Shown in pieces: positions 3,300-27,504 of a DNA stretch of 28,644 nucleotides. Location: the NCBI GenBank assembly GCA_946008205.1, contig CAMGAZ010000001.1, positions 1 through 28,644 on the forward strand, read 5' to 3'. The stretch is from an uncultured Clostridium sp. Its GTDB lineage: Bacteria > Bacillota > Clostridia > TANB77 > CAG-508. The stretch's first letter is position 1. The number at the start of each line of letters is the position of its first letter. The notes under the pieces were generated by a model, which was not told the origin of the DNA, searched no databases, and worked only from the letters and a program-made list of their open reading frames with translations. The translations under genes were made by a program, and so were the position numbers.

Positions 3300-3350
3300 A
3301 AATATATCAATTCACTTAAAAAATTATTGCAAAAGGAAAGGAAAAATAAA

Positions 3351-3638
3351 ATGAATTTAATAAATGAAAGCGCAAGCCGCAAGATTGATGATTTAGGCAG
3401 AATAACTATTCCTAAGAATATGAGAAAAAGATTAAATGTAAGAGCGGGAGAGGATTTAGATTTTTATAGTTTAGAACATGAAGGTAAATATTATGTATGT
3501 TTAACTTCTAAGCGGAATCCGCCATCTTATAAATATAAAGTAGTAACAGATATTTTTAAAGAATATAATATAGAAGTACCAAAAGAATTTTTAGATGCAA
3601 TAGCAAAAGAAACATTTGAAGCAAGAGAAGAAAAGTAA
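3351..3638 (+). CDS. abrB: AbrB/SpoVT-family transcription regulator
   Basis: SRKIDDLGRITIPKNMRKRLNVRAGEDLDF matches the AbrB swapped-hairpin signature. ATG 3351 follows an AAGGAAAGG RBS. Confidence 0.85.
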   Translation: MNLINESASRKIDDLGRITIPKNMRKRLNVRAGEDLDFYSLEHEGKYYVCLTSKRNPPSYKYKVVTDIFKEYNIEVPKEFLDAIAKETFEAREEK

Positions 3639-3650
3639 AGGAGAAAGAGA

Positions 3651-3734
3651 ATGTTTGCGATATTAATAATTTTAGGATTTATATTTTTACCAACTTATTG
3701 TATGATTAAAGCGCAGGAAATGAATAAATATTAA
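3651..3734 (+). CDS. 27-aa hydrophobic small protein (not in ORF track)
   Basis: MFAILIILGFIFLPTYCMIKAQEMNKY behind an AAGGAG RBS. Confidence 0.5.
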   Translation: MFAILIILGFIFLPTYCMIKAQEMNKY

Positions 3735-3837
3735 TTTTTAACACGCAAGAGCAAAGAAAAAAGGAGCGCAGACTCTGATAAAAATTTGTCAGACACTGGC
3801 GCGTCTTATTTTAAAACATGGAAAGGAATAAAAGAGT

Positions 3838-4443
3838 ATGATAAATAATTATCAGAGTTTGCCGCCTGAAGAGCATGGCATCATTACCAACGCATGCATT
3901 TATAATATGAGTAATGCTGTGCGCGCGTCTAAATATCCTATGGCGGCAGATGTAAGTAAGTGTACTGATGAAATTAAGGATATTACAAAGAAACTTGCAA
4001 ACGCGCCTCGCGGAAGTGGACATGACAATTTTCTGCATGGAATTTTACTGGGATTTGATTTGACGCTTAGTAATAAGGCGTGGGTTGAATGGGAAAGGTA
4101 TCACTTCCAGGACATAGTCAGCTCTCAAAGTACTATGCACAGAATCGTAAAATTGGTAGATGAGAATGACCCTTTTAATGAGTGGGTTACTGATAATACG
4201 AAAGAAGAAGTTAGAAGATTGGTTGATGAATATAATAATGCTTCTAAGGAAGAGAAAGATGATGCTTATTTGACGCTTTTGTATAATGTGCCAAGTGGAT
4301 TAAAGTTGACTGCGGGAATTGTAACGAATATGGGTCAGATAAAGACAATGATAGGACAAAGAGAATTTCATAGACTGCCAGAATGGAGATACGTGATTGC
4401 TTATTTTAAAAAGGTGAGTGATTGGCTAGGAGTTGCCTTATAG
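3838..4443 (+). CDS. thyX: Divergent ThyX-like (flavin-dependent thymidylate synthase fold) protein
   Basis: GSGHDNFL, ERYHF..SSQSTMHR, TNMGQIKTMIGQREFHRLPEW resemble the clostridial/phage ThyX-like family. The canonical RHRx7SxR motif is altered. Confidence 0.62.
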   Translation: MINNYQSLPPEEHGIITNACIYNMSNAVRASKYPMAADVSKCTDEIKDITKKLANAPRGSGHDNFLHGILLGFDLTLSNKAWVEWERYHFQDIVSSQSTMHRIVKLVDENDPFNEWVTDNTKEEVRRLVDEYNNASKEEKDDAYLTLLYNVPSGLKLTAGIVTNMGQIKTMIGQREFHRLPEWRYVIAYFKKVSDWLGVAL

Positions 4444-4875
4444 GCAACTCCAAATGGTTTTAAGACTTCCCGTCTTTTAATTTTAAAATGGTTTTAAGAA
4501 AGTTTTTTTCCAGGCAATCTCGATATGCTTCACAATTTAAAGATTTACCCGTAATATACCCGCCCCACCTGTATTTTTAACTGATAAAAATATAACAAAT
4601 GTATTGTTGACTTGTTCAACTATTGTATAAAACAATTAAAATACACCCTGCTACACTGTAAACGTATAAAAGCCGTTTATAGTGTTTTTTTATGTGTTAT
4701 TGATACATTACACCTATAAGCATATAAAATCGCTTAAAACGCAATTTAAAGTCTTACAAGCCTATATATGATATATTCATGTGGTCGCTATTGCATCAGT
4801 TCTATATTTAATTAGTTACATCAAACAAATAAAAATTCAGATCTGAAAAAAATTGAAAAAAACTAAAAAAAGTAT

Positions 4876-4988
4876 TTGACATTGATTCGTAGGTTTGTTA
4901 TTATAATGGTGCGGACGGCGTTAAGGTCGAACGCAAGAAAAAAAATAAAAAATAAGGCTTGACAAACAAGTCTGAACGGTAGTAAAAT
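4876..4988 (+). promoter_or_regulatory. Tandem sigmaA promoters opening the early region
   Basis: TTGACA 4876-17 nt-TATTAT (TATAAT 3 nt further on); TTGACA 4959-18 nt-TAAAAT. Confidence 0.7.
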
Positions 4989-5119
4989 GATTACCGTAGA
5001 CAACTTAATACAGAGACACCCGACCGCGTGAAATAGGCTTTAAAGTCGGGGCGGCACGAAATAAGACCGCACAAAACGTATAACTATTGAAACATTAATA
5101 TAATTGGAGGTAAATTAAA

Positions 5120-5404
5120 ATGTTAAAATTAAAGTGTAATACGACTAACGTGAGACCTGAAATAGCTGCTGTAGTGACGGCAGCTTTAAATAAATCGTAC
5201 TGGATGAATGATGTTAAATGCATCATTCGACATAACAGTATTGAGTTTAATTCACGTCATTCAAGCTGGACTGTCGACATAGAGTTCGACCGTCAGACTA
5301 AAAAATATGAAGTCTGTTGGTTTGAAAATAATGTCGCTGACAAAATGATTATAATGGATTCTCCGGAACTCATTATAATGACCGTCATGGACACGTTTTT
5401 TTAA
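5120..5404 (+). CDS. Hypothetical early protein
   Basis: 94 aa, GGAGGT RBS. Confidence 0.8.
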   Translation: MLKLKCNTTNVRPEIAAVVTAALNKSYWMNDVKCIIRHNSIEFNSRHSSWTVDIEFDRQTKKYEVCWFENNVADKMIIMDSPELIIMTVMDTFF

Positions 5405-5415
5405 GGGGGCAAATT

Positions 5416-5661
5416 ATGTTACAAGATAGTAAATATTATATGAAAAAACTTTATAAATCTTTAAGTCCTTGTGAAACAATGTTTCATAAGGACGGACTTA
5501 TAAACATAGAAAGCAACATATCTGACAGATGCGTTGCTATTCTATGGATGTTTCATTATGCTGTTGTAAGCAATAACGGTATAGTGAAACAGTGGCACGG
5601 TGGACGTGCAAAACAGTATGCATTAAAATATGCATACGAAATATTAGAGAGAGAGGTATAA
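5416..5661 (+). CDS. Hypothetical early protein
   Basis: 81 aa, AAGGGGG RBS, operon spacing. Confidence 0.75.
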   Translation: MLQDSKYYMKKLYKSLSPCETMFHKDGLINIESNISDRCVAILWMFHYAVVSNNGIVKQWHGGRAKQYALKYAYEILEREV

Positions 5662-5662
5662 T

Positions 5663-5956
5663 ATGGTAAAAAAAATAGTTGGTATGTTATTAATAGGCGT
5701 TGTGATAGGCTATTGTCTACCACATACGCCAGTTCTCACCGATATAAAAGATGGTGAGAATTACGCTGTTGCTACATTCTTGGAGGATTCTAAGAATGTA
5801 GGTAATGGCGTATTCATTTATGACGGCGGTCATAGTACCGCCAGTAATAAGCAGGTGATTGATTCGCCTATAAAACGCGCACCATTACATGATGGTGCAA
5901 ATTATATAGTTAAACTCAGCAATGATTCAATTGTTGAATGGTACAGATTAAAATAA
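5663..5956 (+). CDS. Hypothetical protein with N-terminal membrane anchor
   Basis: 97 aa, GAGGT RBS, hydrophobic KKIVGMLLIGVVIGYC. Confidence 0.78.
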   Translation: MVKKIVGMLLIGVVIGYCLPHTPVLTDIKDGENYAVATFLEDSKNVGNGVFIYDGGHSTASNKQVIDSPIKRAPLHDGANYIVKLSNDSIVEWYRLK

Positions 5957-5970
5957 GGAGGTAAAAAATT

Positions 5971-6315
5971 ATGAAAAGCAATAGAATTAATACAATCACA
6001 CTGGCTGATTATAGTCAGTTTGTTGACGGCAAGCATCGCAACGGTGGATGTTACGGCTATGATACTATATACACATATAGTCCTGAACAGGATAGGTTTA
6101 CACGTGAGTGGTGTACTACGTGTGAACTCACACCAGACGGAGAGCCGGTTGACGGTTATCCACTGTATGCAACTATCAGCGAATTGATAGATTTTGTCCG
6201 TCAATCCGCTGATACGCCAAATTGCGCCGTATACGTAAATGACGTATGTGTGTGGGAGTCTACTCCGATAGACTCCCATGATATAGACGAATCAAGTCTA
6301 TATCTTGACGAATAA
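5971..6315 (+). CDS. Hypothetical acidic protein
   Basis: 114 aa, AAGGAGGT RBS, followed by a terminator. Confidence 0.8.
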   Translation: MKSNRINTITLADYSQFVDGKHRNGGCYGYDTIYTYSPEQDRFTREWCTTCELTPDGEPVDGYPLYATISELIDFVRQSADTPNCAVYVNDVCVWESTPIDSHDIDESSLYLDE

Positions 6316-6345
6316 AAACAAGGGCGTTACGCCCTTGTTTTTTTT
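6316..6345 (+). terminator. Intrinsic terminator
   Basis: AAACAAGGGCG-tta-CGCCCTTGTTT plus a T-run. Confidence 0.85.
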
Positions 6346-6349
6346 ATTT

Positions 6350-7375
6350 AAAGTGAACATACGTTCGTTTCACAAGTTAGTTAGTTAATCCTAACCAACG
6401 AACGTATGTTCGCTTTAGTACATTAAAGGGGTAAAGTAATTGCCCTGCACAAGAATATGCTTTAATGCTTTAGTGTATTAAAGTAATTTACATTTCATTT
6501 ATTAACTGTTCCACTTTAGTGTATTAAAGTGTTTCATTTGTTTATGATTTTCTTTTTTCGCTTTAATGCGATAAAGTATTTTACAAATGAAATATTGAAC
6601 TGTTCCACTTTATCACTTTAACGCGTTAAAGCAAGAAAATCATAAATCATTGCACTTTACCACTTTAATGTGGTGAAGTGCTGAAGCCGAGCCAAGACGC
6701 TGCATCTTTTTGGTCACTTGTTGCGTCTTGGCTCGGCATTTAATTGAATTGTGAATTACTGATTTTTTAATTGAAAAGTGCATAGAGCAAAAGTGAAATA
6801 TTGTACCCGAAACTATTGACCTCTGCATAAAAACACAAATGAATTATTAGTTAGTTCCATAGTTGCTGCCGCAACGTTCCACTTTTCATTATCCTCTTCA
6901 ATTTTTTCTGGTGTTGTAATCTCCTGTTCTCGATTGAATTTATAAATATATTGAGGTGTTCGAGAACAGGTGTTTAGTTCACAAGTAAAGTGTACGTGTG
7001 TTCGCTATTGCAATGTTCTTAAAAGAACAAGTATGTGGTTAAAAAGAACAAATATTCAGCTTATATGTTCTTTAATCGAACAAAAGAGAATAGATAAAAG
7101 AACTAATATGCAGAATATTTGTTTTAAAAAGCCAAAAAGACCAGTTGACGAACAAATATTCGGAATAAAAAGAATGAAATAGGTGTATATGTGGCTAAAA
7201 AGAACAAATATTTAGATTATGTGTCCGGGTCACAAGCAATAGAAGAACTAATATGCAGAACGCACGTTTGTGCTGCGTGCGATAAAAGAACTAATATGTA
7301 GAACATATATTCATGAACCAATATGTAGAACAGAGGTTTAAAGAACGTATGTATACAGAACAAATATTTGGAATG
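6350..7375. repeat. Non-coding module M1: SOS-box inverted repeat, CTTTA-N6-TAAAG array, GC hairpin, 15-mer, SOS-box array
   Basis: SOS-box IR 6350-6416; CTTTA-N6-TAAAG at 6413, 6468, 6514, 6561, 6616; 15-bp hairpin 6686-6737; CCCGAAACTATTGAC 6806; GAAC-N4-RTTY array 6964-7369. Confidence 0.85.
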
Positions 7376-7418
7376 AGATTGTACTGAAATAAAAATAATA
7401 TAAAATGCGTAAAATGTA

Positions 7419-7447
7419 TTGACAAATATATAAATCTGTAGTAATAT
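7419..7447 (+). promoter_or_regulatory. sigmaA promoter
   Basis: TTGACA-17 nt-TAATAT; nearly identical to the promoter at 8810. Confidence 0.75.
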
Positions 7448-7498
7448 GTATACATAAGTTAAAACAAATTAAAAAAAACAGTAAAGGATGGTTTTAAA

Positions 7499-7786
7499 AT
7501 GAAAAAGTTAATTATTTTAATATCAATTGTTGCTATTACATTCGGTTGTGGTTATGCACTTAAAGCAACAGAAAGTAAAGTACATACGTATACAGACGAA
7601 TGTACATATTATTCAAATAATCCGGAGTGCCCGCAGCTGGGCGGCTCGTTTTATGGCTCTGAAATATGGGATATAAACAATCCAACTTTAGAGGATGGTA
7701 AGACATACATGGTTGAATTAAGCAACCATAAAACGCCTGACGATGCGACAGACGATATTGTAATAGGGTGGACTTTACAGGAATAA
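7499..7786 (+). CDS. Hypothetical protein with N-terminal signal/TM segment
   Basis: 95 aa, MKKLIILISIVAITFGCGYALKA; AAAGGA RBS. Confidence 0.82.
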   Translation: MKKLIILISIVAITFGCGYALKATESKVHTYTDECTYYSNNPECPQLGGSFYGSEIWDINNPTLEDGKTYMVELSNHKTPDDATDDIVIGWTLQE

Positions 7787-7813
7787 ACGGCTCACGCCGT
7801 TTATTTTTTTTTT
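7783..7813 (+). terminator. Intrinsic terminator
   Basis: ATAAACGGC-tcac-GCCGTTTAT plus a T-run. Confidence 0.8.
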
Positions 7814-7879
7814 ATGTTCTATTGTGTATACAACATACAATATATTTTAAAAATATATGATGTTTTTTCTTAAAATGTA

Positions 7880-7908
7880 TTGACAACATTAGAAATACAC
7901 GTTATAAT
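7880..7908 (+). promoter_or_regulatory. sigmaA promoter
   Basis: Perfect TTGACA-17 nt-TATAAT. Confidence 0.85.
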
Positions 7909-7954
7909 AAGACATAAGTTAAATCAAGAAAACATAATGAGAGGAAGTAATAAT

Positions 7955-8176
7955 ATGACAAAGACAGCAAGAGAATTATTAATACAGAATGGTTTTGAAA
8001 CAACAGATAACAATGTATTTACATTGTATATCTTAAATGAAACCGTTATTTTTGACGGTGATAATATCACTTTTAAAAGCATAGACAGAACTGTTTGCGC
8101 TCCAACAGAAAATGATAAAATTGATTTTATTCTTAATTTTATCATGAGTAGTTATACAACTTGTTTTTTAGCATAA
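7955..8176 (+). CDS. Hypothetical protein
   Basis: ATG 7955 behind a GAGAGGA RBS; the longer ORF-track start lies inside the promoter. Confidence 0.72.
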   Translation: MTKTARELLIQNGFETTDNNVFTLYILNETVIFDGDNITFKSIDRTVCAPTENDKIDFILNFIMSSYTTCFLA

Positions 8177-8212
8177 AATAAAATGGTCTGATTTTTCAGA
8201 CCATTTTATTTT
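8176..8212 (+). terminator. Intrinsic terminator
   Basis: AAATAAAATGGTCTGA-tttt-TCAGACCATTTTATTT plus a T-run. Confidence 0.8.
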
Positions 8213-8301
8213 TATTTTAAATTGATTATTTTATTTTTTAAATTGAGTTTTTTATTTTTTAAATTGATAATTGTATATATGTACTGGATTCAATTTCACT
8301 A

Positions 8302-8330
8302 TTGCATTTTATAATTTTATATGTTAAAAT
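8302..8330 (+). promoter_or_regulatory. sigmaA promoter
   Basis: TTGCAT-17 nt-TAAAAT with an extended TG. Confidence 0.6.
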
Positions 8331-8355
8331 AAAATAAAAAAGGATGGTTTTAAAA

Positions 8356-8832
8356 ATGAAAAAATTAAATATCTACTTCGATATGGATGGTACTATTGCC
8401 AATCTATATGAATATAAAGACTGGCTAAAGCATTTGAGAAGTGAGTCAGTCGCACCATATGAATTTTGCAAACCTATGGTAGATATGGAGCAATTAAAAG
8501 AACTGTTACAGAATCCAATAATTAATAGTGTAAATATTATTAGTTGGACTGCAAAGCATGGAACAACAGAATACAACCGAAAGACAAGATACGCCAAAAT
8601 CAGATGGTTAGCCAAAAATGGTTTAGATTACCATTTGATAGATAAATATATAATCGTTCCTTATGGAACAGATAAAGCCGATGCAATAGGCAAACTAACA
8701 GAAAATGACATACTGTTTGATGATGAAAAACAGAACAGGTCTAATTGGATTGTAAAGGGCGGTCATGCTGAGGATGAAAAAAATCTAATAGAAAAATTGA
8801 AAAAATATATTGACAAATATACAAACCTGTAG
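8356..8832 (+). CDS. HAD-superfamily 5'(3')-deoxyribonucleotidase-like phosphatase
   Basis: HAD motif I IYFDMDGTIANL, motif II ISWT, motif IV ILFDD. Start 8356 has the same leader (AAGGATGGTTTTAAAA) as the gene at 7499. Confidence 0.85.
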   Translation: MKKLNIYFDMDGTIANLYEYKDWLKHLRSESVAPYEFCKPMVDMEQLKELLQNPIINSVNIISWTAKHGTTEYNRKTRYAKIRWLAKNGLDYHLIDKYIIVPYGTDKADAIGKLTENDILFDDEKQNRSNWIVKGGHAEDEKNLIEKLKKYIDKYTNL

Positions 8833-8838
8833 TACAAT
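8810..8838 (+). promoter_or_regulatory. sigmaA promoter inside the 3' end of the HAD gene
   Basis: TTGACA-17 nt-TACAAT. Confidence 0.8.
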
Positions 8839-8891
8839 AAAGATAGTTAAGGGCGGCAAGCAAAGCCGCCCAAAGAAAGGAGTAAAAAAAA

Positions 8892-9221
8892 ATGAATGTT
8901 TTAGAAAAAACAAAAGAATTATTATTAGAATGTGTTGATGAAACAGAAATATTTATTCAAGGTGATGACCGTTTCGCAAAAGGTCAGATTACTTTAAATA
9001 ACGGGAGCCTTGATATTAATTTTAGTTATAATGATGTGACGCATAAAGCAAGTATTAGAATCATATATAATACAACCAATTTTGATTTTGATGCGTGGAT
9101 ATGGGATACAACAAGTTTTACAGACTATTCTGCATTTTGCTATGGACTTATCGGAGTTCTTGCAGATTACAATAATTACAATGAAAAAGGTTTTATTATT
9201 AAAATATTACTTGATTTATAG
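8892..9221 (+). CDS. Hypothetical acidic protein
   Basis: 109 aa, AAAGGAG RBS. Confidence 0.8.
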   Translation: MNVLEKTKELLLECVDETEIFIQGDDRFAKGQITLNNGSLDINFSYNDVTHKASIRIIYNTTNFDFDAWIWDTTSFTDYSAFCYGLIGVLADYNNYNEKGFIIKILLDL

Positions 9222-9233
9222 AGGTGAAAAAAA

Positions 9234-9470
9234 ATGAATATGGAAATTTTAAACATTACGGCTATACAGATGGGCGCCCTTGTAAATGAGGGCGCCGATA
9301 GAATAACTGTTATGGGAATCAATAATCCCGTAGTTATGACCGCAATATACAAAGACAATAAACTGACTGTAACATATTATAGCCACGTAGTAAAAGAACA
9401 CATATTATATACAGGTATAACAACAGAGCCTGAAAAAGTGATATGTGGCTTGATGGGATTATTATTATAA
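9234..9470 (+). CDS. Hypothetical protein
   Basis: 78 aa, GAGGTG RBS. Confidence 0.78.
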   Translation: MNMEILNITAIQMGALVNEGADRITVMGINNPVVMTAIYKDNKLTVTYYSHVVKEHILYTGITTEPEKVICGLMGLLL

Positions 9471-9699: not shown

Positions 9700-10535
9700 T
9701 TAGTTCCATACAAGAGCAAAGATTAAAATGTGAATCTTTTTTTAAACATATATACAAACAAGAGCAAAGAAAACATGGATACAATCGCGCGACGCAGCAA
9801 AATTTAACTGTTCGCGCGGTCAATAATTTCAAATGAAACTATTAGTATCTTCTTCTATTGCGCGTGAAATAATTGATAATGCTAATAGTTTCATTTGAAA
9901 TTATTACACTTTACCACTTTAGCACTTTAAAGCGCGAGCCGCGAACCTCGCTGTGTCGGTTGTGCCCTTTGACCGACACAGCGAGGCATTTACTGAACAA
10001 GTGAATTATCAATTTTTTAATTAACAAGTGCATAGTGAACTTGTTAATAGTTGCCGCCCGAAACTATTGACCTCTTCAAACACTTTAGCATAGTAAAGCA
10101 CTAACGCTTTAGTGCGCTAAAGTGAAAACTATAAACTCCCTCTTCAGCGCTTCATTGCGTTAAAGTGTTAATGTACTAAAGCGAAATTTAAAATATGTAT
10201 ACAACCATGCGGATTGTATACGATTTAAGAATTGTATACATATTTTAAATTTCGCTTTAGTACATTAACGTGGAAGAGCGCAATAATTGGCAGGGTCAAC
10301 GGTACGTCCGGTCGTGTATACAATATGCAACATACAAAATACAATGCTCCCGATGGAGCAAAAAACGAACTGATATGCAGAACAGTTGTTTGTCATGCTC
10401 CATCGGGAGCATTTCATAAGTGAATTATTGACTGGATCAATGATCGGAGCACGAAAACCTTGACCATATAAATAGTTGTCGCAGCAGATTATTTACAAGT
10501 GAAGATGCTCCCGTACTTTCATGTATACAATATAC
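9700..10535. repeat. Non-coding module M2
   Basis: 17- and 20-bp IRs; GC hairpin 9946-9986; CCCGAAACTATTGAC 10057; CTTTA-N6-TAAAG at 10083 and 10107; TGTATAC sites 10196-10240; TGCTCC-N4-GGAGCA at 10345 and 10396 flanking an SOS-like box at 10380. Confidence 0.85.
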
Positions 10536-10548
10536 ACGCTAATTTTAA

Positions 10549-10675
10549 TTGACATTGTGCCGACATTAGTTTATACTATAATTGTTCTTGAGGATAGGAA
10601 CACAACGAGAGTTGAAAACAAAGTTCTTAAGAATGAAAAAAAGTGCTTGACAATCTTACTTAAATGCTTTAAAAT
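10549..10675 (+). promoter_or_regulatory. Tandem sigmaA promoters
   Basis: TTGACA 10549-17 nt-TATACT; TTGACA 10647-17 nt-TAAAAT. Confidence 0.8.
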
Positions 10676-13042: not shown

Positions 13043-13050
13043 TAAGTGAA

Positions 13051-13510
13051 ATGCTCCCACTACTTTATCACTCTATTGCGGTAAAGCGTTGGGAGCATCA
13101 CTTTAGTCCTTTAATACTTTATCCTACTAAAGCGGGAGCACGAACGAACAAATGTTCGGGAGCACCACGAACACGAACAGGCGTTTGCGAACACATGTTC
13201 TTGGGAGCACTGACCCTCGCTGTGACGCCCAAAGGGCACGGTCGTCACAGCGAGGGATTTAACTGAAACTTCACTTGTGAATTATTTGCTTGGATAAGCA
13301 AACTATTAGCATGACAACTATTTCGCCCGAAACTATTGACATATGCAATAATTCACTTGTGAAGCGAAATTGTATACGTGTTTTAATGCAAAAGGATTGT
13401 ATACAATCTGAAAATTGTATACAAGTTCTTTAATCTCATAAAAAAATACAATTTTAACGCGTTAAAGCGCCGAAGATTGTTAAAAATTTAACAAAAAGTA
13501 TACAAAATAC
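13051..13510. repeat. Non-coding module M3
   Basis: GGGAGCA x5; CTTTA 8-bp tandem 13101-13132; SOS boxes at 13146, 13175, 13189; GC hairpin 13214-13256; CCCGAAACTATTGAC 13326; TTGTATACAA at 13397 and 13415. Confidence 0.85.
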
Positions 13511-13633
13511 ATAAAAAATACACAAAATTTCTCAAAAATGCTTGCAAAAAAGCAAAAAATTTGTTATTATTATAGTACAAACAAGAGGGAAAGAAAAAAG
13601 TAATCCTCTTCAAAAAAAGTTTAAAAAAAAGTA

Positions 13634-13662
13634 TTGACAAACCCTTAAACCTATGTTAATAT
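13634..13662 (+). promoter_or_regulatory. sigmaA promoter
   Basis: TTGACA-17 nt-TAATAT with an extended TG. Confidence 0.75.
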
Positions 13663-13731
13663 ATAAGTACAAAAGGGGAACAAAACAAAGTCAGCTGAAA
13701 AAGACGTTAAAACAGAGAAAAGGACAAATTA

Positions 13732-16510: not shown

Positions 16511-17080
16511 ATGGCACATAATTGGAAGTGGTACGTTAAAAATAATGATTTTGAAGGCTGTTTAGAAAGATTCAATGCAGCAAATAAAGGTTGGAAGAAA
16601 CATTGGTTTAGTGTTTTAGAAGATATATATAATAATTGTAAAGAATGGTCAAAAAAATATATTCTTGACCCTGTAGAGATGGTAGTTATAACCATTTCAG
16701 ATTGTATTAAAAAGACAACTAAAAAAGTGCAGAATCTTGTAAATGGTGCGAATAGCCATACATATTTAATAAATATGTATGATGAAGAGGATAATTTGGT
16801 TTTTACAAAAATTGGTAAAGCTGACAATATTAATAAAAGATTCAACGCTCTTGAGCGTCAGTATTACGCTACACAAGACATACAAATTGCGCGTATTGAG
16901 CCAGTCCATGTATTTAACGTCAAGAATGACGACCTTGCGCAAGTGCTTGAAAGTTTCATCAGAAATCTATTCCGCAAAACGCGCGACTTTATTCCAAACG
17001 ATAGATTTAAACCCTTTACACCATCAGAAGAGGAATGGAAAGAAATGGAAAGATATTATAAATTAGTTTGCGCAGAATGA
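16511..17080 (+). CDS. T5orf172/GIY-YIG-superfamily domain protein
   Basis: TYLINM...FTKIGKADNINKRF...LES resembles the Y-x-I...KIG...R...E pattern. Confidence 0.7.
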   Translation: MAHNWKWYVKNNDFEGCLERFNAANKGWKKHWFSVLEDIYNNCKEWSKKYILDPVEMVVITISDCIKKTTKKVQNLVNGANSHTYLINMYDEEDNLVFTKIGKADNINKRFNALERQYYATQDIQIARIEPVHVFNVKNDDLAQVLESFIRNLFRKTRDFIPNDRFKPFTPSEEEWKEMERYYKLVCAE

Positions 17081-17157: not shown

Positions 17158-17334
17158 ATGAAAACAACAGCAAGAGGAATAATAAGACGTTTTGATGACT
17201 TAGGCAGAATTGTAATTCCTAAAGAAATCCGCCGTAAATTTAAAATCAACGCGGGCGAGCCAGTTGGAATATATATAACTGAAGAGGGCATATTATTAAA
17301 GCCTTACAATCCCGAATCAAAAAGTAAGTTTTAA
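17158..17334 (+). CDS. abrB: Second AbrB-family regulator, 58 aa (missed by the ORF track)
   Basis: MKTTARGIIRRFDDLGRIVIPKEIRRKFKINAGEPVGIYITEEGIILKPY; GAAGGT RBS. Confidence 0.9.
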   Translation: MKTTARGIIRRFDDLGRIVIPKEIRRKFKINAGEPVGIYITEEGILLKPYNPESKSKF

Positions 17335-17354: not shown

Positions 17355-17383
17355 TTGACAAAACTCAATCCCCATGATATACT
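17355..17383 (+). promoter_or_regulatory. sigmaA promoter firing into non-coding module M4
   Basis: TTGACA-17 nt-TATACT with an extended TG, embedded in the IR GGGGATTGA/TCAATCCCC. Confidence 0.7.
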
Positions 17384-17393
17384 CATTTTAAGT

Positions 17394-17900
17394 AGAACGT
17401 CTGCGAACAAACAGGTGTTCTTTTTATTTTTGGCGCGAACAGATATTCGGAAAAAACTTTATTGCTTTACTGCGCTAAAGTGTTTAAAATGTTAATAGTT
17501 GCGCTTTAGCCCAGTAAAGTGATAAAGTAGTTGAATTGTAAAATATTGCGCTTTAGTAGTTTAGCGCTTTAGCGCGATAAAGTAGTTGAATTGTGAACTG
17601 GTCGTCGGCGGAGCAGACGACCAGAATTTTCCATTTAACCCGTCCTGCCAATTTTTTCCAGCAAAACCCCCATAGCGCGAGCCCCTAGAATCCGCCCGAA
17701 ACCAAGCATAGCGCGCACGGGCCCCATAGCGCGCAGACAAAAAACCCGGTTCGCTTCGCTCACACAAATGGCGCGAAAGCAAGCCACATAGCGAGCACCT
17801 CTATTTCTTGGCGCGGAATCAACCGCGGCGCACAAACCAAGCAACCCGGTAGCGTGAGCAAGCCACCAGTGCGGAGCGCTATCCTGAGCTTTTTCTCAGA
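17394..17900. repeat. Non-coding module M4 and GC-rich repeat tract
   Basis: SOS-like boxes at 17409 and 17437; CTTTA-N6-TAAAG at 17465, 17504, 17567; hairpin 17598-17624; CATAGCGMG repeats 17670-17795. Confidence 0.8.
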
Positions 17901-18045
17901 AAGCCCTTTGAATCACACGCAAGAGGAAAGAAAAAAAAGAATCGCGCGAACCGCAGTAAAACTTGACAATCACAAAAATTTTATAATGTCAACTGCGGGC
18001 TTACAGTAAAATCCGCGTTTTCTTTTTATTATAACATAAAAAATA

Positions 18046-20537: not shown

Positions 20538-20566
20538 TTCAAATTCTCAAAAAAATTTGTTATAAT
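20538..20566 (+). promoter_or_regulatory. sigmaA promoter
   Basis: TTCAAA-17 nt-TATAAT with an extended TG. Confidence 0.65.
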
Positions 20567-20642
20567 AATTATAGAAAGTGTGATTGCTATTGCATAGCAA
20601 TCACGAAATTTAAAGAGAATACATAACGAAAGGACATTTTGT

Positions 20643-22649: not shown

Positions 22650-23549
22650 ATGCGTTATGTTCTTAAAAATAAAAATATTTCCGATAAAGGAACATTTGAA
22701 TTTTACAAAGGATTATTAAATATGGAATTAAATAAACATGAATTTAAAATATTAACAATGGTTTTAGCATTAAAGAATGATAATAAAATATATAGCGGCA
22801 AACTTGCAAATATGTGTGAATTCTTAAATATAGGTAAAAATAGTAAGAATAATAAAAACATTAAAGAAACTATAAACGATTTAAGTGAAAAAGGCTTATT
22901 GGTTTATTATGTTAATGGTTATACTTGGACATTAATATTTAAAGATTCTGCACTGGAAAATAAAGAAATTTTACAGTTAGATAAGGCTTGGCTTGATACT
23001 GTAAGATTGTTTAGAACAGATGAAAATAATAGCGTAGATTGGAGCAATTTATTAAAGGTGTTTATATTTTTATTTAGTAATAATAATAAAGTATTTACAA
23101 TAGAAGAAATAAGCAGAGTAACAAATTTAAGTAAAGATATAATTAAAAAGGCGCTTGCAGCTATAAAAGAAATTAATGCGGCAGGCGGTTTTGGTTGCGG
23201 TTTTACTATAGAGCGCAAATATTATAATAATCATACTTTTTCTGAAAAACCACAAAGTTTCTATCTTTATAAATATGAGGATATTAATAGAGAAATTGTC
23301 TATATAGGACAGACAATTTCTTTAACACAAAGAATTCAGCAGCATACTCAAGATAAATTACAAGATTTTTCTGGAATAGTTTATTATGTAGAATGTGGTT
23401 CTAAAGAGGAAATGGATTTTTTAGAAAAAGTTTTAATAAACTATTATAAGCCAAAATTTAATGTAATTCATAAAGATAGAAATGATTTAACTACAAAACT
23501 TATTAATATAAATTTAAACTGGCAATTTTATACAAAAATAACAGACTAA
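22650..23549 (+). CDS. wHTH + C-terminal GIY-YIG endonuclease
   Basis: FYLYKY...VYIGQT...RIQQH...E...KPKFN at the C-terminus; HTH-like FTIEEISRVTNLSKDIIKKAL. Confidence 0.85.
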   Translation: MRYVLKNKNISDKGTFEFYKGLLNMELNKHEFKILTMVLALKNDNKIYSGKLANMCEFLNIGKNSKNNKNIKETINDLSEKGLLVYYVNGYTWTLIFKDSALENKEILQLDKAWLDTVRLFRTDENNSVDWSNLLKVFIFLFSNNNKVFTIEEISRVTNLSKDIIKKALAAIKEINAAGGFGCGFTIERKYYNNHTFSEKPQSFYLYKYEDINREIVYIGQTISLTQRIQQHTQDKLQDFSGIVYYVECGSKEEMDFLEKVLINYYKPKFNVIHKDRNDLTTKLININLNWQFYTKITD

Positions 23550-26448: not shown

Positions 26449-27504
26449 ATGTCGTATAAAAACAAGTATAAATTAAATAAAGAACATGACAAAAATATTC
26501 AAGCGAGAACCTTTAATATGGAAAAAGATTCTCCATTTTTACATTATCAAACAGATGATTTACTCTTTGGAGAATTAAATGCAATTTGTTCTTATAGCGA
26601 TGAAATAGATATAGGAATACCCTGTCATCTATATGTTCTAAAATCAGATTTTAGAGAATTTAGACAAATGTTTTCTAAAAAAATAGGAGTAGATGAAAAA
26701 ACTGTTAGCAACCATTTAAAACATTTAATAGAGAAAAAAATGGTTATAGAATTTTCAACTATATATAATGGGCAAAGAAAAAAATGTCTTGGAATTCCTG
26801 ATGTTCCAGAAGATATAACTTCTATTACCATACCTCTTGCAAAAATAAAAAATTTTCCTTTACAGGAAAAGCACAGCTTTCGTATTTATTTATATTTACT
26901 AAATAAATATAGAAATAATGAAATAAATTTTACTTATAAGGAAATAGCCTCTGCAATGGGATATGAAGCTACCGATAAAGGTACAACTATAGATAAAATT
27001 TCTATAGTATTACAAAAATTACAACAAGAAAAAATTATGGAGTGGACAGAATTTTATCGTGTGTATAATAATCATCCTATTCCTTATAAAAAAATTCTTT
27101 CAGCAGACCTTTCTAAAATAAAAACAAAAAACTTCAAAAAAGAATCAGTTAAAAAATTTAATAATCAAGATAATAAAGAAGAAGAAAATAAAAAAACTAC
27201 ACCAAAACTTATAAAAGGTTTTTATCTTTATAAATACGAAAATCTTGATAAAGAAATTGTCTATATCGGACAAACAATTTCTTTATCACAAAGAATTCGA
27301 CAACACACTCAAGACAAATTACAAAATTTTTCTGGTATAATTTATTATGTAGAATGTGGGTCTAAAGAAGAGATGGACTTTTTGGAAAAGGTCTTAATAA
27401 ATTATTATAAACCAAAATTTAACATAATCCACAAGGAGAGGAAAGATTTGATGGTAAATCTGATAAATCTAGATTTAAATTGGCAATTCTATAAGGAAGT
27501 GTAA
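26449..27504 (+). CDS. wHTH + C-terminal GIY-YIG endonuclease
   Basis: C-terminal about 90 aa nearly identical to 22650..23549; two HTH-like segments (FSKKIGVDEKTVSNHLKHL, FTYKEIASAMGY). Confidence 0.85.
   Translation: MSYKNKYKLNKEHDKNIQARTFNMEKDSPFLHYQTDDLLFGELNAICSYSDEIDIGIPCHLYVLKSDFREFRQMFSKKIGVDEKTVSNHLKHLIEKKMVIEFSTIYNGQRKKCLGIPDVPEDITSITIPLAKIKNFPLQEKHSFRIYLYLLNKYRNNEINFTYKEIASAMGYEATDKGTTIDKISIVLQKLQQEKIMEWTEFYRVYNNHPIPYKKILSADLSKIKTKNFKKESVKKFNNQDNKEEENKKTTPKLIKGFYLYKYENLDKEIVYIGQTISLSQRIRQHTQDKLQNFSGIIYYVECGSKEEMDFLEKVLINYYKPKFNIIHKERKDLMVNLINLDLNWQFYKEV

Follow-up and report, generated by a model that had tools for sequence, protein, structure and literature searches.

Which protein reads the GAAC-N4-GTTC boxes that crowd the non-coding DNA at positions 6350-7375 of a 28,644-nt contig from an uncultured Clostridium bin, and what would its binding achieve? 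The stretch analyzed, referred to below as the window, is the entire contig C1 of a metagenome-assembled genome (MAG) of 1.84 Mb and 331 contigs, and it is phage DNA that was binned into this Clostridia MAG. A first-pass annotation, made from the letters alone, had described the region as a dense array of LexA boxes and had proposed that it titrates LexA or places early genes under DNA-damage control. The boxes are real, clustered and highly non-random. They are interpreted here as operators for the host LexA or for a LexA-like dimer, which would act by loading and sequestration or by insulation and not by promoter repression; the chances that this interpretation is correct are judged to be even.

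LexA-type boxes are clustered in four non-coding modules

Sixteen boxes that match GAAC-N4-GTTC with at most one mismatch were found in the window, 4 of them perfect and 12 with one mismatch, compared with 6.67±2.61 in dinucleotide shuffles; 0 of 100 shuffles reached 16. The enrichment noticed in the first-pass annotation is thus upheld, whereas its count of 15 boxes has to be corrected to 16, the additional ones being those at 10380 and 11930. Nine of the 16 lie within 6355-7339, and all box positions that had been given for this region proved correct (perfect boxes at 6355 and 6400; one-mismatch boxes at 6964, 6992, 7046, 7150, 7258, 7301 and 7328; two-mismatch boxes at 7113, 7202 and 7358). 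The other boxes are found at 10380, 13146, 13175, 13189, 17409, 17437 and 11930, the last of which lies inside a gene and is probably fortuitous. The stricter pattern RAAC-N4-GTTY occurs 13 times in the window, with 2.6±1.6 expected.

Two close relatives of the phage are present in IMG/VR, namely G001 (123.4 kb) and G002 (75.8 kb), whose sigma factors are 98% and 93% identical to that of the window. A matrix scan against background, which the first-pass annotation had proposed as a check, was carried out with a position matrix trained only on the boxes of G002 and of the phage-like bin contig C114, and sites of at least 13 bits were regarded as strong. Twelve strong sites were detected in the window compared with 0.42±0.66 in simulations. 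G001 contains three, all at the end that corresponds to the first of the modules described below (M1), and 14 are spread over the other 1.81 Mb of the bin, including 3 in C114. Thus, at least 12 strong sites per phage genome compare with about 11 elsewhere in the host bin. Perfect boxes show the same pattern, as G001 has none in 123 kb except at its M1 end, and the nine of G002 are all located between 53.9 and 64.8 kb; the boxes of the window and G002 are partly homologous, and their counts are not fully independent.

The clusters belong to a rightward early-gene block at ~3.3-17.3 kb, which is characterized by near-consensus sigmaA promoters, small orphan genes and a 5'-deoxyribonucleotidase gene that resembles dmp of phage T5. 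Four untranslated modules interrupt this block, at 6350-7460 (M1), 9830-10560 (M2), 13043-13700 (M3) and 17390-17960 (M4). Each module combines several operator-like motif families, of which the GAAC boxes are one, and G002 has four modules with the same families. In the window, G001 and G002, LexA-type boxes, counted as perfect boxes, are confined to these four non-coding modules.

Module boxes match the LexA operator and are rebuilt between relatives

The consensus of Gram-positive LexA operators is CGAACRNRYGTTYC (CGAAC-RNRY-GTTCG) (PMC2248561), the LexA dimer of Bacillus binds a 14-bp sequence (PMC4551915), and the clostridial boxes of C. difficile have the form GAAC-N4-GTTT/C (PMC4234289). 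Flanks, spacer and 14-mer unit had not been used to find the boxes, and all three match the Gram-positive consensus. An RNRY spacer occurs in 23 of 27 module boxes but in only 2 of 19 background boxes (Fisher 5e-7), with ~21% expected from composition. GAAC is directly preceded by C in 56% of the boxes compared with ~17% in the background, GTTC is followed by G, and at three places pairs of boxes abut as exact 14-mers (e.g. CGAACAGGCGTTTG / CGAACACATGTTCT). The resemblance to Bacillota and clostridial LexA operators claimed in the first-pass annotation therefore extends beyond the tetrads to the 5' C and 3' G flanks, the spacer and the abutting 14-mers. Judged by its sequence, the GAAC family is a 14-bp palindrome, CGAAC-RNRY-GTTYG, that is indistinguishable from the Bacillota/clostridial LexA operator. 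In contrast to the module boxes, most units of the repeat block at 7016-7375 lack this extended fit.

Comparison with the relatives shows which part of the sites is kept. The perfect boxes at 6355-6366 (GAACATACGTTC, 18.6 bits) and 6400-6411 (GAACGTATGTTC, within the 14-mer CGAACGTATGTTCG, 21.6 bits) each occupy one arm of an inverted repeat, IR-A (6349-6417), as had been described before; its arms at 6349-6369 and 6397-6417 measure 21 nt and are 95% complementary. The window, G001 and G002 agree in the tetrads, in their flanks and in a spacer of 27 nt between the arms, whereas the N4 cores are swapped or inverted, reading ATAC/GTAT in the window, AAGT/ACTT in G002 and GTAT/AAGT in G001. A function of IR-A as a hairpin was rejected, since the arms of G001 carry different cores and no longer match each other. 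This indicates a constraint on the boxes and not on a hairpin. In M3, a cluster at 13142-13200 consists of CGAACGAACAAATGTTCG followed by the abutting 14-mers CGAACAGGCGTTTG and CGAACACATGTTCT (13174-13201), with 20.4, 19.6 and 20.7 bits, respectively. Compared with G002, the boxes of M3 are kept with changed cores, one of them moved two bases by an indel, and G002 has two extra boxes. These alignments show that boxes have been gained, lost and rebuilt between relatives, always inside the modules, while the motif has persisted.

The block at 7016-7375 is a strain-specific half-site array

Positions 7016-7375 of M1 harbor a direct-repeat iteron array on the forward strand. It comprises ~10 units with the consensus ATAAAAGAAC-W-AATAT-KY-AGAAY, and some of the units run on into a GAAC-N4-RTTY box 13 nt downstream. 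The paired unit GAACYAATATGYA-GAAC-N4-RTTY that had been noticed in the first pass was recovered at 7245, 7288 and 7315, with a variant at 7100, and it does recur at 10367-10391, there with TGAT in place of YAAT. The composite GAAC-N9-GAAC-N4-GTTY is found at 7245, 7288, 7315 and 10367. Between 6940 and 7400, 15 GAAC and 5 GTTC tetrads were counted, in total 20 compared with 3.3 expected, and the GAAC and ATAT positions are invariant among the aligned array units.

Strong sites are few in this part of M1. Only four are located in 6940-7400, at 6964, 6992, 7150 (13.1 bits) and 7258 (15.5 bits), and the first two of these sit left of the block, which leaves 7150 and 7258 inside it. The boxes at 7301, 7328 and 7358 are weak (8-9 bits), and the remaining ones in 6940-7400 score below 8 bits. 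The label of a dense array of LexA boxes is thus overstated for 7016-7375, which consists mostly of half-site iterons of the same direction with a conserved AATAT that is foreign to LexA operators, and which has no counterpart in G002 or elsewhere in the phage genome. Two properties of the array speak against LexA as its reader. Direct repeats dominate, with conserved AATAT positions that LexA would not require, and the iteron AGAAC-N-RATAT-KY, of which 6 copies are present here, has none in G001 (123 kb) or G002 (76 kb) and only a background level of 7 copies in 1.8 Mb of the MAG. The string AAAGAAC reads GTTCTTT on the other strand and resembles what we take to be a SinR-type heptamer; presumably this is a resemblance only.

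At the position of the array, G002 has four perfect palindromes (CGAACATATGTTCC, CGAACACACGTTCA, AGAACCTACGTTCT and TGAACGCGCGTTCT), followed by a promoter and a HAD 5'-nucleotidase gene. In the block 7016-7375, a composite unit has been amplified in tandem, in which a lone GAAC half-site lies 13 nt upstream of a GAAC-N4-GTTY box; this amplification is strain-specific. The amplified units are partly decayed, and few copies remain good palindromes. The conserved feature at this position is a cluster of LexA-type palindromes.

Such an array might also be a neutral by-product of a recent tandem duplication of a GAAC segment, with one-mismatch boxes that have no function. This would agree with a similarity of 68-87% between the units, with their 156-bp higher-order period and with the absence of the array from G002, and it would explain that only 4 of the ~15 half-sites in 6940-7400 belong to strong sites. 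It is nevertheless very improbable, as the array is located exactly where G002 has its four perfect boxes and is retained in a ~94%-identical relative from another study (run X4), which covers 6962-9379. In addition, the composite unit of M2 (10367-10391, forward strand; half-site and box, GAACTGATATGCA-GAACAGTTGTTT, 15.6 bits) is fully conserved in G002 as part of a 33-nt identical stretch.

Host LexA and phage proteins as candidate binders

On its contig C3, the host bin carries a gene for a normal LexA of 219 aa, in which an Ala-Gly cleavage site is present. The LexA_DNA_bind domain matched this host contig only and was found neither in the window nor in G001 or G002, and Pfam and PHROG scans revealed no helix-turn-helix (HTH) repressor, in agreement with the earlier statement that the window lacks lexA and cI genes. 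A further indication comes from C114, a 5.4-kb bin contig that is a fragment of a second, distantly related phage with strong sigmaA promoters and an odd CAGCTG-rich tract. This contig has its own lineage-specific repeats, TTATGTAAAC, yet it contains one CGAAC-AAAT-GTTCG box per intergenic module. That the box is shared despite different repeats suggests a factor common to both phages, which would read the GAAC boxes.

Several findings, in addition to the features of the array, weigh against LexA of this host. The SOS operators of the bin itself are of the form CAAAC-N4-GTTTG, whereas the phage boxes are mostly CGAAC. The operator of the bin's lexA overlaps the -35 element and is conserved in more than 30 relatives; the other CAAAC-N4-GTTTG sites are two at recA and those on C32 and C44, and they include sites that precede a RecG-like gene and another gene. 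Among related genomes, the lexA operator occurs with both AAAC and GAAC half-sites, but the GAAC forms are limited to relatives that are more distant. In VRE9_4, a distant Enterococcus relative, the syntenic non-coding region measures 1.2 kb and carries other palindromes; VRE9_4 contains 14 LexA-type boxes compared with 10 in the control, and none of them lies in the syntenic region. In the modules of the window, the motif families CTTTA-N6-TAAAG, TGTATACA and GGGAGCA accompany the boxes and cannot be LexA sites, and the box at 17409 in M4 doubles as half of a terminator stem whose hairpin shows compensatory changes in G002. The boxes also keep a distance from promoters. The next strong promoter follows 50-460 bp downstream of the boxes in M1, ~170 bp downstream in M2 and 445-490 bp downstream in M3, while IR-A of M1 and the boxes of M4 are situated at the ends of operons. 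Finally, phage and host are linked by binning alone. A search for short exact matches, which covered the bin and 200 host-family genomes, yielded only similarities to AbrB genes and AT-rich promoters and revealed neither a CRISPR nor a prophage link.

Several of these findings would be expected if boxes and iterons were operators for a phage-encoded protein, whose sites time or shut off early transcription and resemble LexA operators by convergence or mimicry. The sharing of the modules by CTTTA, TGTATACA and GGGAGCA motifs implies that the phage probably encodes site-specific binders of its own, and such a protein would fit the three or four other palindrome families of the modules, a strain-specific array whose direct iterons share a conserved AATAT, the AAAC-type host operators, and the occurrence of other palindromes where the Enterococcus relatives are syntenic. 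The only recognizable DNA-binding folds of the early block are two AbrB/MazE-type proteins (3327-3638 and 17158-17334), the second encoded directly upstream of M4, and the binder might be either of these, one of the orphan early proteins, or a LexA-like protein in truncated form, comparable to gp6 of phage GIL01. A precedent for a small phage-encoded LexA homologue exists in GIL01 (PMC6182141). On the other hand, the match to the LexA consensus reaches the flanks, the spacer pattern and the 14-bp unit length, candidate HTH, winged-helix or LexA-like domains were not detected in the window or its relatives, and C114 shares the box but neither the other repeats nor any detectable regulator. Moreover, we know of no AbrB-type protein that reads a palindrome of the CGAAC-N4-GTTCG type, which also counts against a binder of this class. 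A phage-encoded reader is regarded as the main and a serious rival, although it is on the unlikely side.

Acquisition from the host is suggested for the 58-aa AbrB/MazE protein, whose gene matches abrB-like genes of numerous host-family genomes with 80-85% DNA identity over ~60 nt.

Operators for the host LexA or a LexA-like dimer remain the preferred interpretation, at the even chance given above. A LexA-type dimer is the most likely binder, and the host's own LexA is the simplest candidate; this identity, like the consequences of binding discussed below, is inferred.

Position of the boxes and possible mode of action

The position of the boxes at operon ends or far upstream of promoters makes promoter occlusion unlikely. 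A possible exception is formed by the boxes at 17409 and 17437, which lie downstream of a putative promoter at 17355 that is not conserved in G002. This affects the two functions proposed in the first-pass annotation in different ways. Titration of LexA is arithmetically possible, as the strong sites of the phage are about as many as those of the whole host MAG, whereas classical SOS repression of the early promoters is not supported by boxes that are situated 50-490 bp upstream or at operon ends.

Among the genes of the window are one for a phage sigma factor (1933-2982, phrog_5767) and several that belong to PHROG-only families, and its nearest named relatives are Enterococcus phages of 134-142 kb with ~38% protein identity. 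The ends of G001 map to window positions 6615 and ~20120, so that G001 together with the 13.5-kb early block of the window gives a full genome of ~137 kb. Integrase, ParA and LexA domains did not turn up in Pfam and PHROG scans of the window, and a tyrosine integrase, ParA and a LexA DNA-binding domain were likewise absent from G001 and G002. For this reason the phage looks virulent; the missing integrase and ParA argue against a temperate lifestyle.

If LexA is the binder, the boxes would load it onto the DNA that is expressed first, where it could insulate the early operons from each other or act as a roadblock between them, and replicating phage genomes could soak up LexA. Since the number of strong sites in the phage is about equal to that of the host bin, sequestration of LexA after phage replication would be numerically plausible. 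Insulation or sequestration could tie early phage functions to the SOS state of the host. Taken to its full extent, this leads to a scenario in which a virulent T5-style phage sets arrays of host LexA operators in the untranslated modules of its first-expressed DNA, where they would serve to capture LexA and not to repress the phage. Bound LexA would first insulate or hold the incoming early region, and with the multiplication of phage genomes LexA would later be drained from the chromosome and the SOS regulon of the host switched on without DNA damage, with the amplified half-site array as a tunable decoy. This scenario is put forward tentatively and is more likely to be wrong than right.

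M1 as a possible site of DNA handling

The architecture of M1 would also be compatible with a cis-acting site for the handling of DNA, such as an iteron origin, a packaging or terminal-repeat boundary, or a stop for injection as in T5. M1 is untranslated over 1.15 kb and contains iterons, a GC hairpin and two inverted repeats that carry boxes. The early block resembles the pre-early region of T5 in its strong sigmaA promoters and in the gene at 8344-8832, which encodes a HAD-type 5'-deoxyribonucleotidase-like protein (phrog_2643, E 8e-9; DMDGT motif in the G002 orthologue) and recalls the T5 pre-early gene dmp. Untranslated repeat regions, three in all, also occur in the long terminal repeat of T5, where DnaA boxes are paired within inverted repeats of the first-injected DNA (bioRxiv 10.1101/866236), and G001, which ends at 6615 and ~20120, is without exactly the early block. 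However, the per-contig depths of the Logan assembly of run X1 (20, 18, 17, 15 and 10) fall gradually and do not change cleanly by a factor of two at M1, which one of the contigs spans. GC skew follows gene orientation only. As for a replication origin, direct repeats are present, but no rep or initiator gene is adjacent, the two one-mismatch DnaA boxes in the array do not exceed the background, and the iterons are missing in G002, although an essential origin or packaging site would be expected to persist. A role of M1 in DNA handling is unlikely.

Several assemblies break at ~20.55 kb, and a short repeat at 20538-20579 is shared with the bin contigs C12, C111 and C308. Together with the ends of G001, these breaks are compatible with a long terminal repeat or a hypervariable block.

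Further features of the early block

M1 is non-coding over 6346-7498. At its left edge, an intrinsic terminator on the forward strand (6314-6345; 13-pair stem and T-run) closes the upstream early operon 3327-6315; it is kept in G001 and G002 with a different stem sequence. A sigmaA-type promoter, TTGACA-17-TAATAT, is located on the same strand at 7419-7447, 50 bp 3' of the last array unit, and a TGTATACA palindrome overlaps its start region. The first gene after the array (7499-7786, forward strand) encodes a small predicted lipoprotein (MKKLIILISIVAITFG/C...) and forms a two-gene cassette with 7880-8176; G002 lacks the region corresponding to window positions 6820-8349.

A second inverted repeat of M1, IR-B (6904-6989), has arms at 6904-6933 and 6960-6989 that are 77% complementary, with the box 6964-6975 (GAACAGGTGTTT) in the right arm. 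The left arm is near-perfect in other assemblies, whereas that of the window is degenerate. Over 4000-8376, Logan contigs from the three runs X1-X3 agree with the window at all but 19 positions, which cluster in 6889-6970 and of which 15 are T>A, and applying these differences restores a 27-bp arm, CTTGTGAACTAAACACCTGTTCTCGAA, which contains AAACACCTGTTC. The left arm in the window may therefore be an assembly artefact or a real variant. The one-mismatch box GTACGTGTGTTC (6992-7003, 13.7 bits) follows directly to the right of IR-B.

The most over-represented palindrome of the window is CTTTA-N6-TAAAG, with 12 perfect copies compared with 0.28 expected. It is restricted to the four modules, at 6406-6680, 9917-10270, 13071-13467 and 17465-17582. 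The array at 6406-6680 has 7-9 copies spaced 46-55 bp apart, represents an operator family different from the LexA-like one and is kept in G001 and G002. The TGTATACA palindrome occurs in 10 copies (0.8 expected), at 7350, 7447, 7825, 10196, 10233, 10315, 10522, 13398, 13416 and 16248, several of which adjoin or overlap early promoters, as the 7447 copy does at the promoter at 7419. GGGAGCA constitutes a further family of the modules. Another element that is not LexA-like, on the forward strand at 6686-6820, combines a GC-rich hairpin (6686-6737) with a conserved 15-mer, CCCGAAACTATTGAC (6806-6820), and recurs at 9945-10071 and 13214-13340.

In M4 (17394-17448, forward strand), the box 17409-17420 (AAACAGGTGTTC, 17.3 bits) lies within the terminator hairpin 17394-17421 and is followed by the box 17437-17448 (GAACAGATATTC, 14.5 bits). 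A GC-rich non-coding tract with repeated CATAGCGCGAGC-like units (17600-17960) marks the right end of the early block and differs in composition from the rest of the phage. Rfam searches at permissive thresholds and a tRNA scan gave nothing meaningful within the modules. Two GIY-YIG endonuclease genes with HTH domains and one gene with a T5orf172 domain (22650-23549, 26449-27504 and 16511-17080) are probably homing endonucleases scattered among conserved genes.

Apart from the phage contigs, the bin represents the genome of an uncultured member of the gut Clostridia, of the "Clostridium sp. CAG:245/CAG:780" kind. Comparison of the window region with the deposited phage collection by DNA similarity, in near and distant modes, gave no match, and a search for further relatives via a flanking gene in viral and metagenome collections retrieved only G002 and its duplicate.

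Comparison with known systems

The use of host LexA by phages is known mainly from temperate phages, in which one or two promoter boxes couple induction to DNA damage. In the present case, an apparently virulent phage of 137 kb carries in its early region as many strong LexA-type sites as the whole host bin, and these are located away from promoters. Should LexA be the binder, the phage would carry a natural array that serves as a transcription-factor decoy or as an insulator; with a phage protein in this role, the sites would be a case of operator mimicry of a global regulator of the host. In both cases, the four modules bring at least four operator families together in a small space, within a phage lineage in which hardly any genes are annotated.

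The boxes share with the LexA operators of Bacillota and clostridia the 12-bp palindromic core, the C and G flanks that extend it to a 14-mer, the RNRY preference, the tolerance of GTTT and one-mismatch variants, and the occasional tandem arrangement. However, chromosomal LexA operators overlap or adjoin the promoters of SOS genes, with 1-3 per promoter, whereas the phage has at least 12 strong sites in non-coding modules, mostly away from promoters. Embedding in direct half-site iterons, as seen for the boxes of M1, is a further difference from chromosomal operators.

In this respect, the M1 array is similar to iteron and centromere arrays such as those of plasmid and phage origins, sopC of F and the omega heptads of pSM19035, which it resembles in its ~10 same-direction repeats of ~20 bp, spaced 27-54 bp apart in non-coding DNA and sharing a short recognition core. 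It differs from them in that no adjacent initiator or partition gene was found (including ParA), the repeat is not kept in a close relative, and the core is a LexA half-site.

The virulent phage T5 shares with the present, apparently virulent phage a large genome and a first-expressed block in which strong promoters of the host type occur together with a dmp-type nucleotidase. The untranslated regions of the T5 long terminal repeat, which include the injection stop signal, are crowded with direct and inverted repeats and palindromes, and boxes for a host protein are paired in inverted repeats (bioRxiv 10.1101/866236). The host protein would be DnaA in T5 and not LexA, and the T5 regions are highly conserved among relatives, unlike the present array. 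The likeness seen is one of layout and of the dmp-like gene, and a terminal repeat and two-step injection would be hypothetical in the present phage.

A parallel in the use of boxes is provided by GIL01 of Bacillus thuringiensis, in which host LexA and phage gp7 act at dinBox1/dinBox1b and dinBox2/3, and which encodes the LexA homologue gp6 (PMC4551915, PMC6182141). Both are phages of Bacillota that have LexA boxes but no classical repressor of their own. GIL01 is, however, a temperate tectivirus of 15 kb, whose boxes lie in or just downstream of promoters and maintain lysogeny, whereas the present phage has ~137 kb and no lysogeny genes were found in it. At dinBox1/dinBox1b, LexA occupies a full box and an adjacent half-site, CGAACaagcGTTTTataagtGTTCG, aided by gp7 (PMC4551915, PMC6182141). 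The same combination of a full box and an adjacent lone half-site is present here at 7245, 7288, 7315 and 10367, with 13 nt between half-site and box instead of 11 nt, and tandem boxes are common to both phages. In GIL01, poor sites can be occupied by LexA with the aid of a small protein of the phage.

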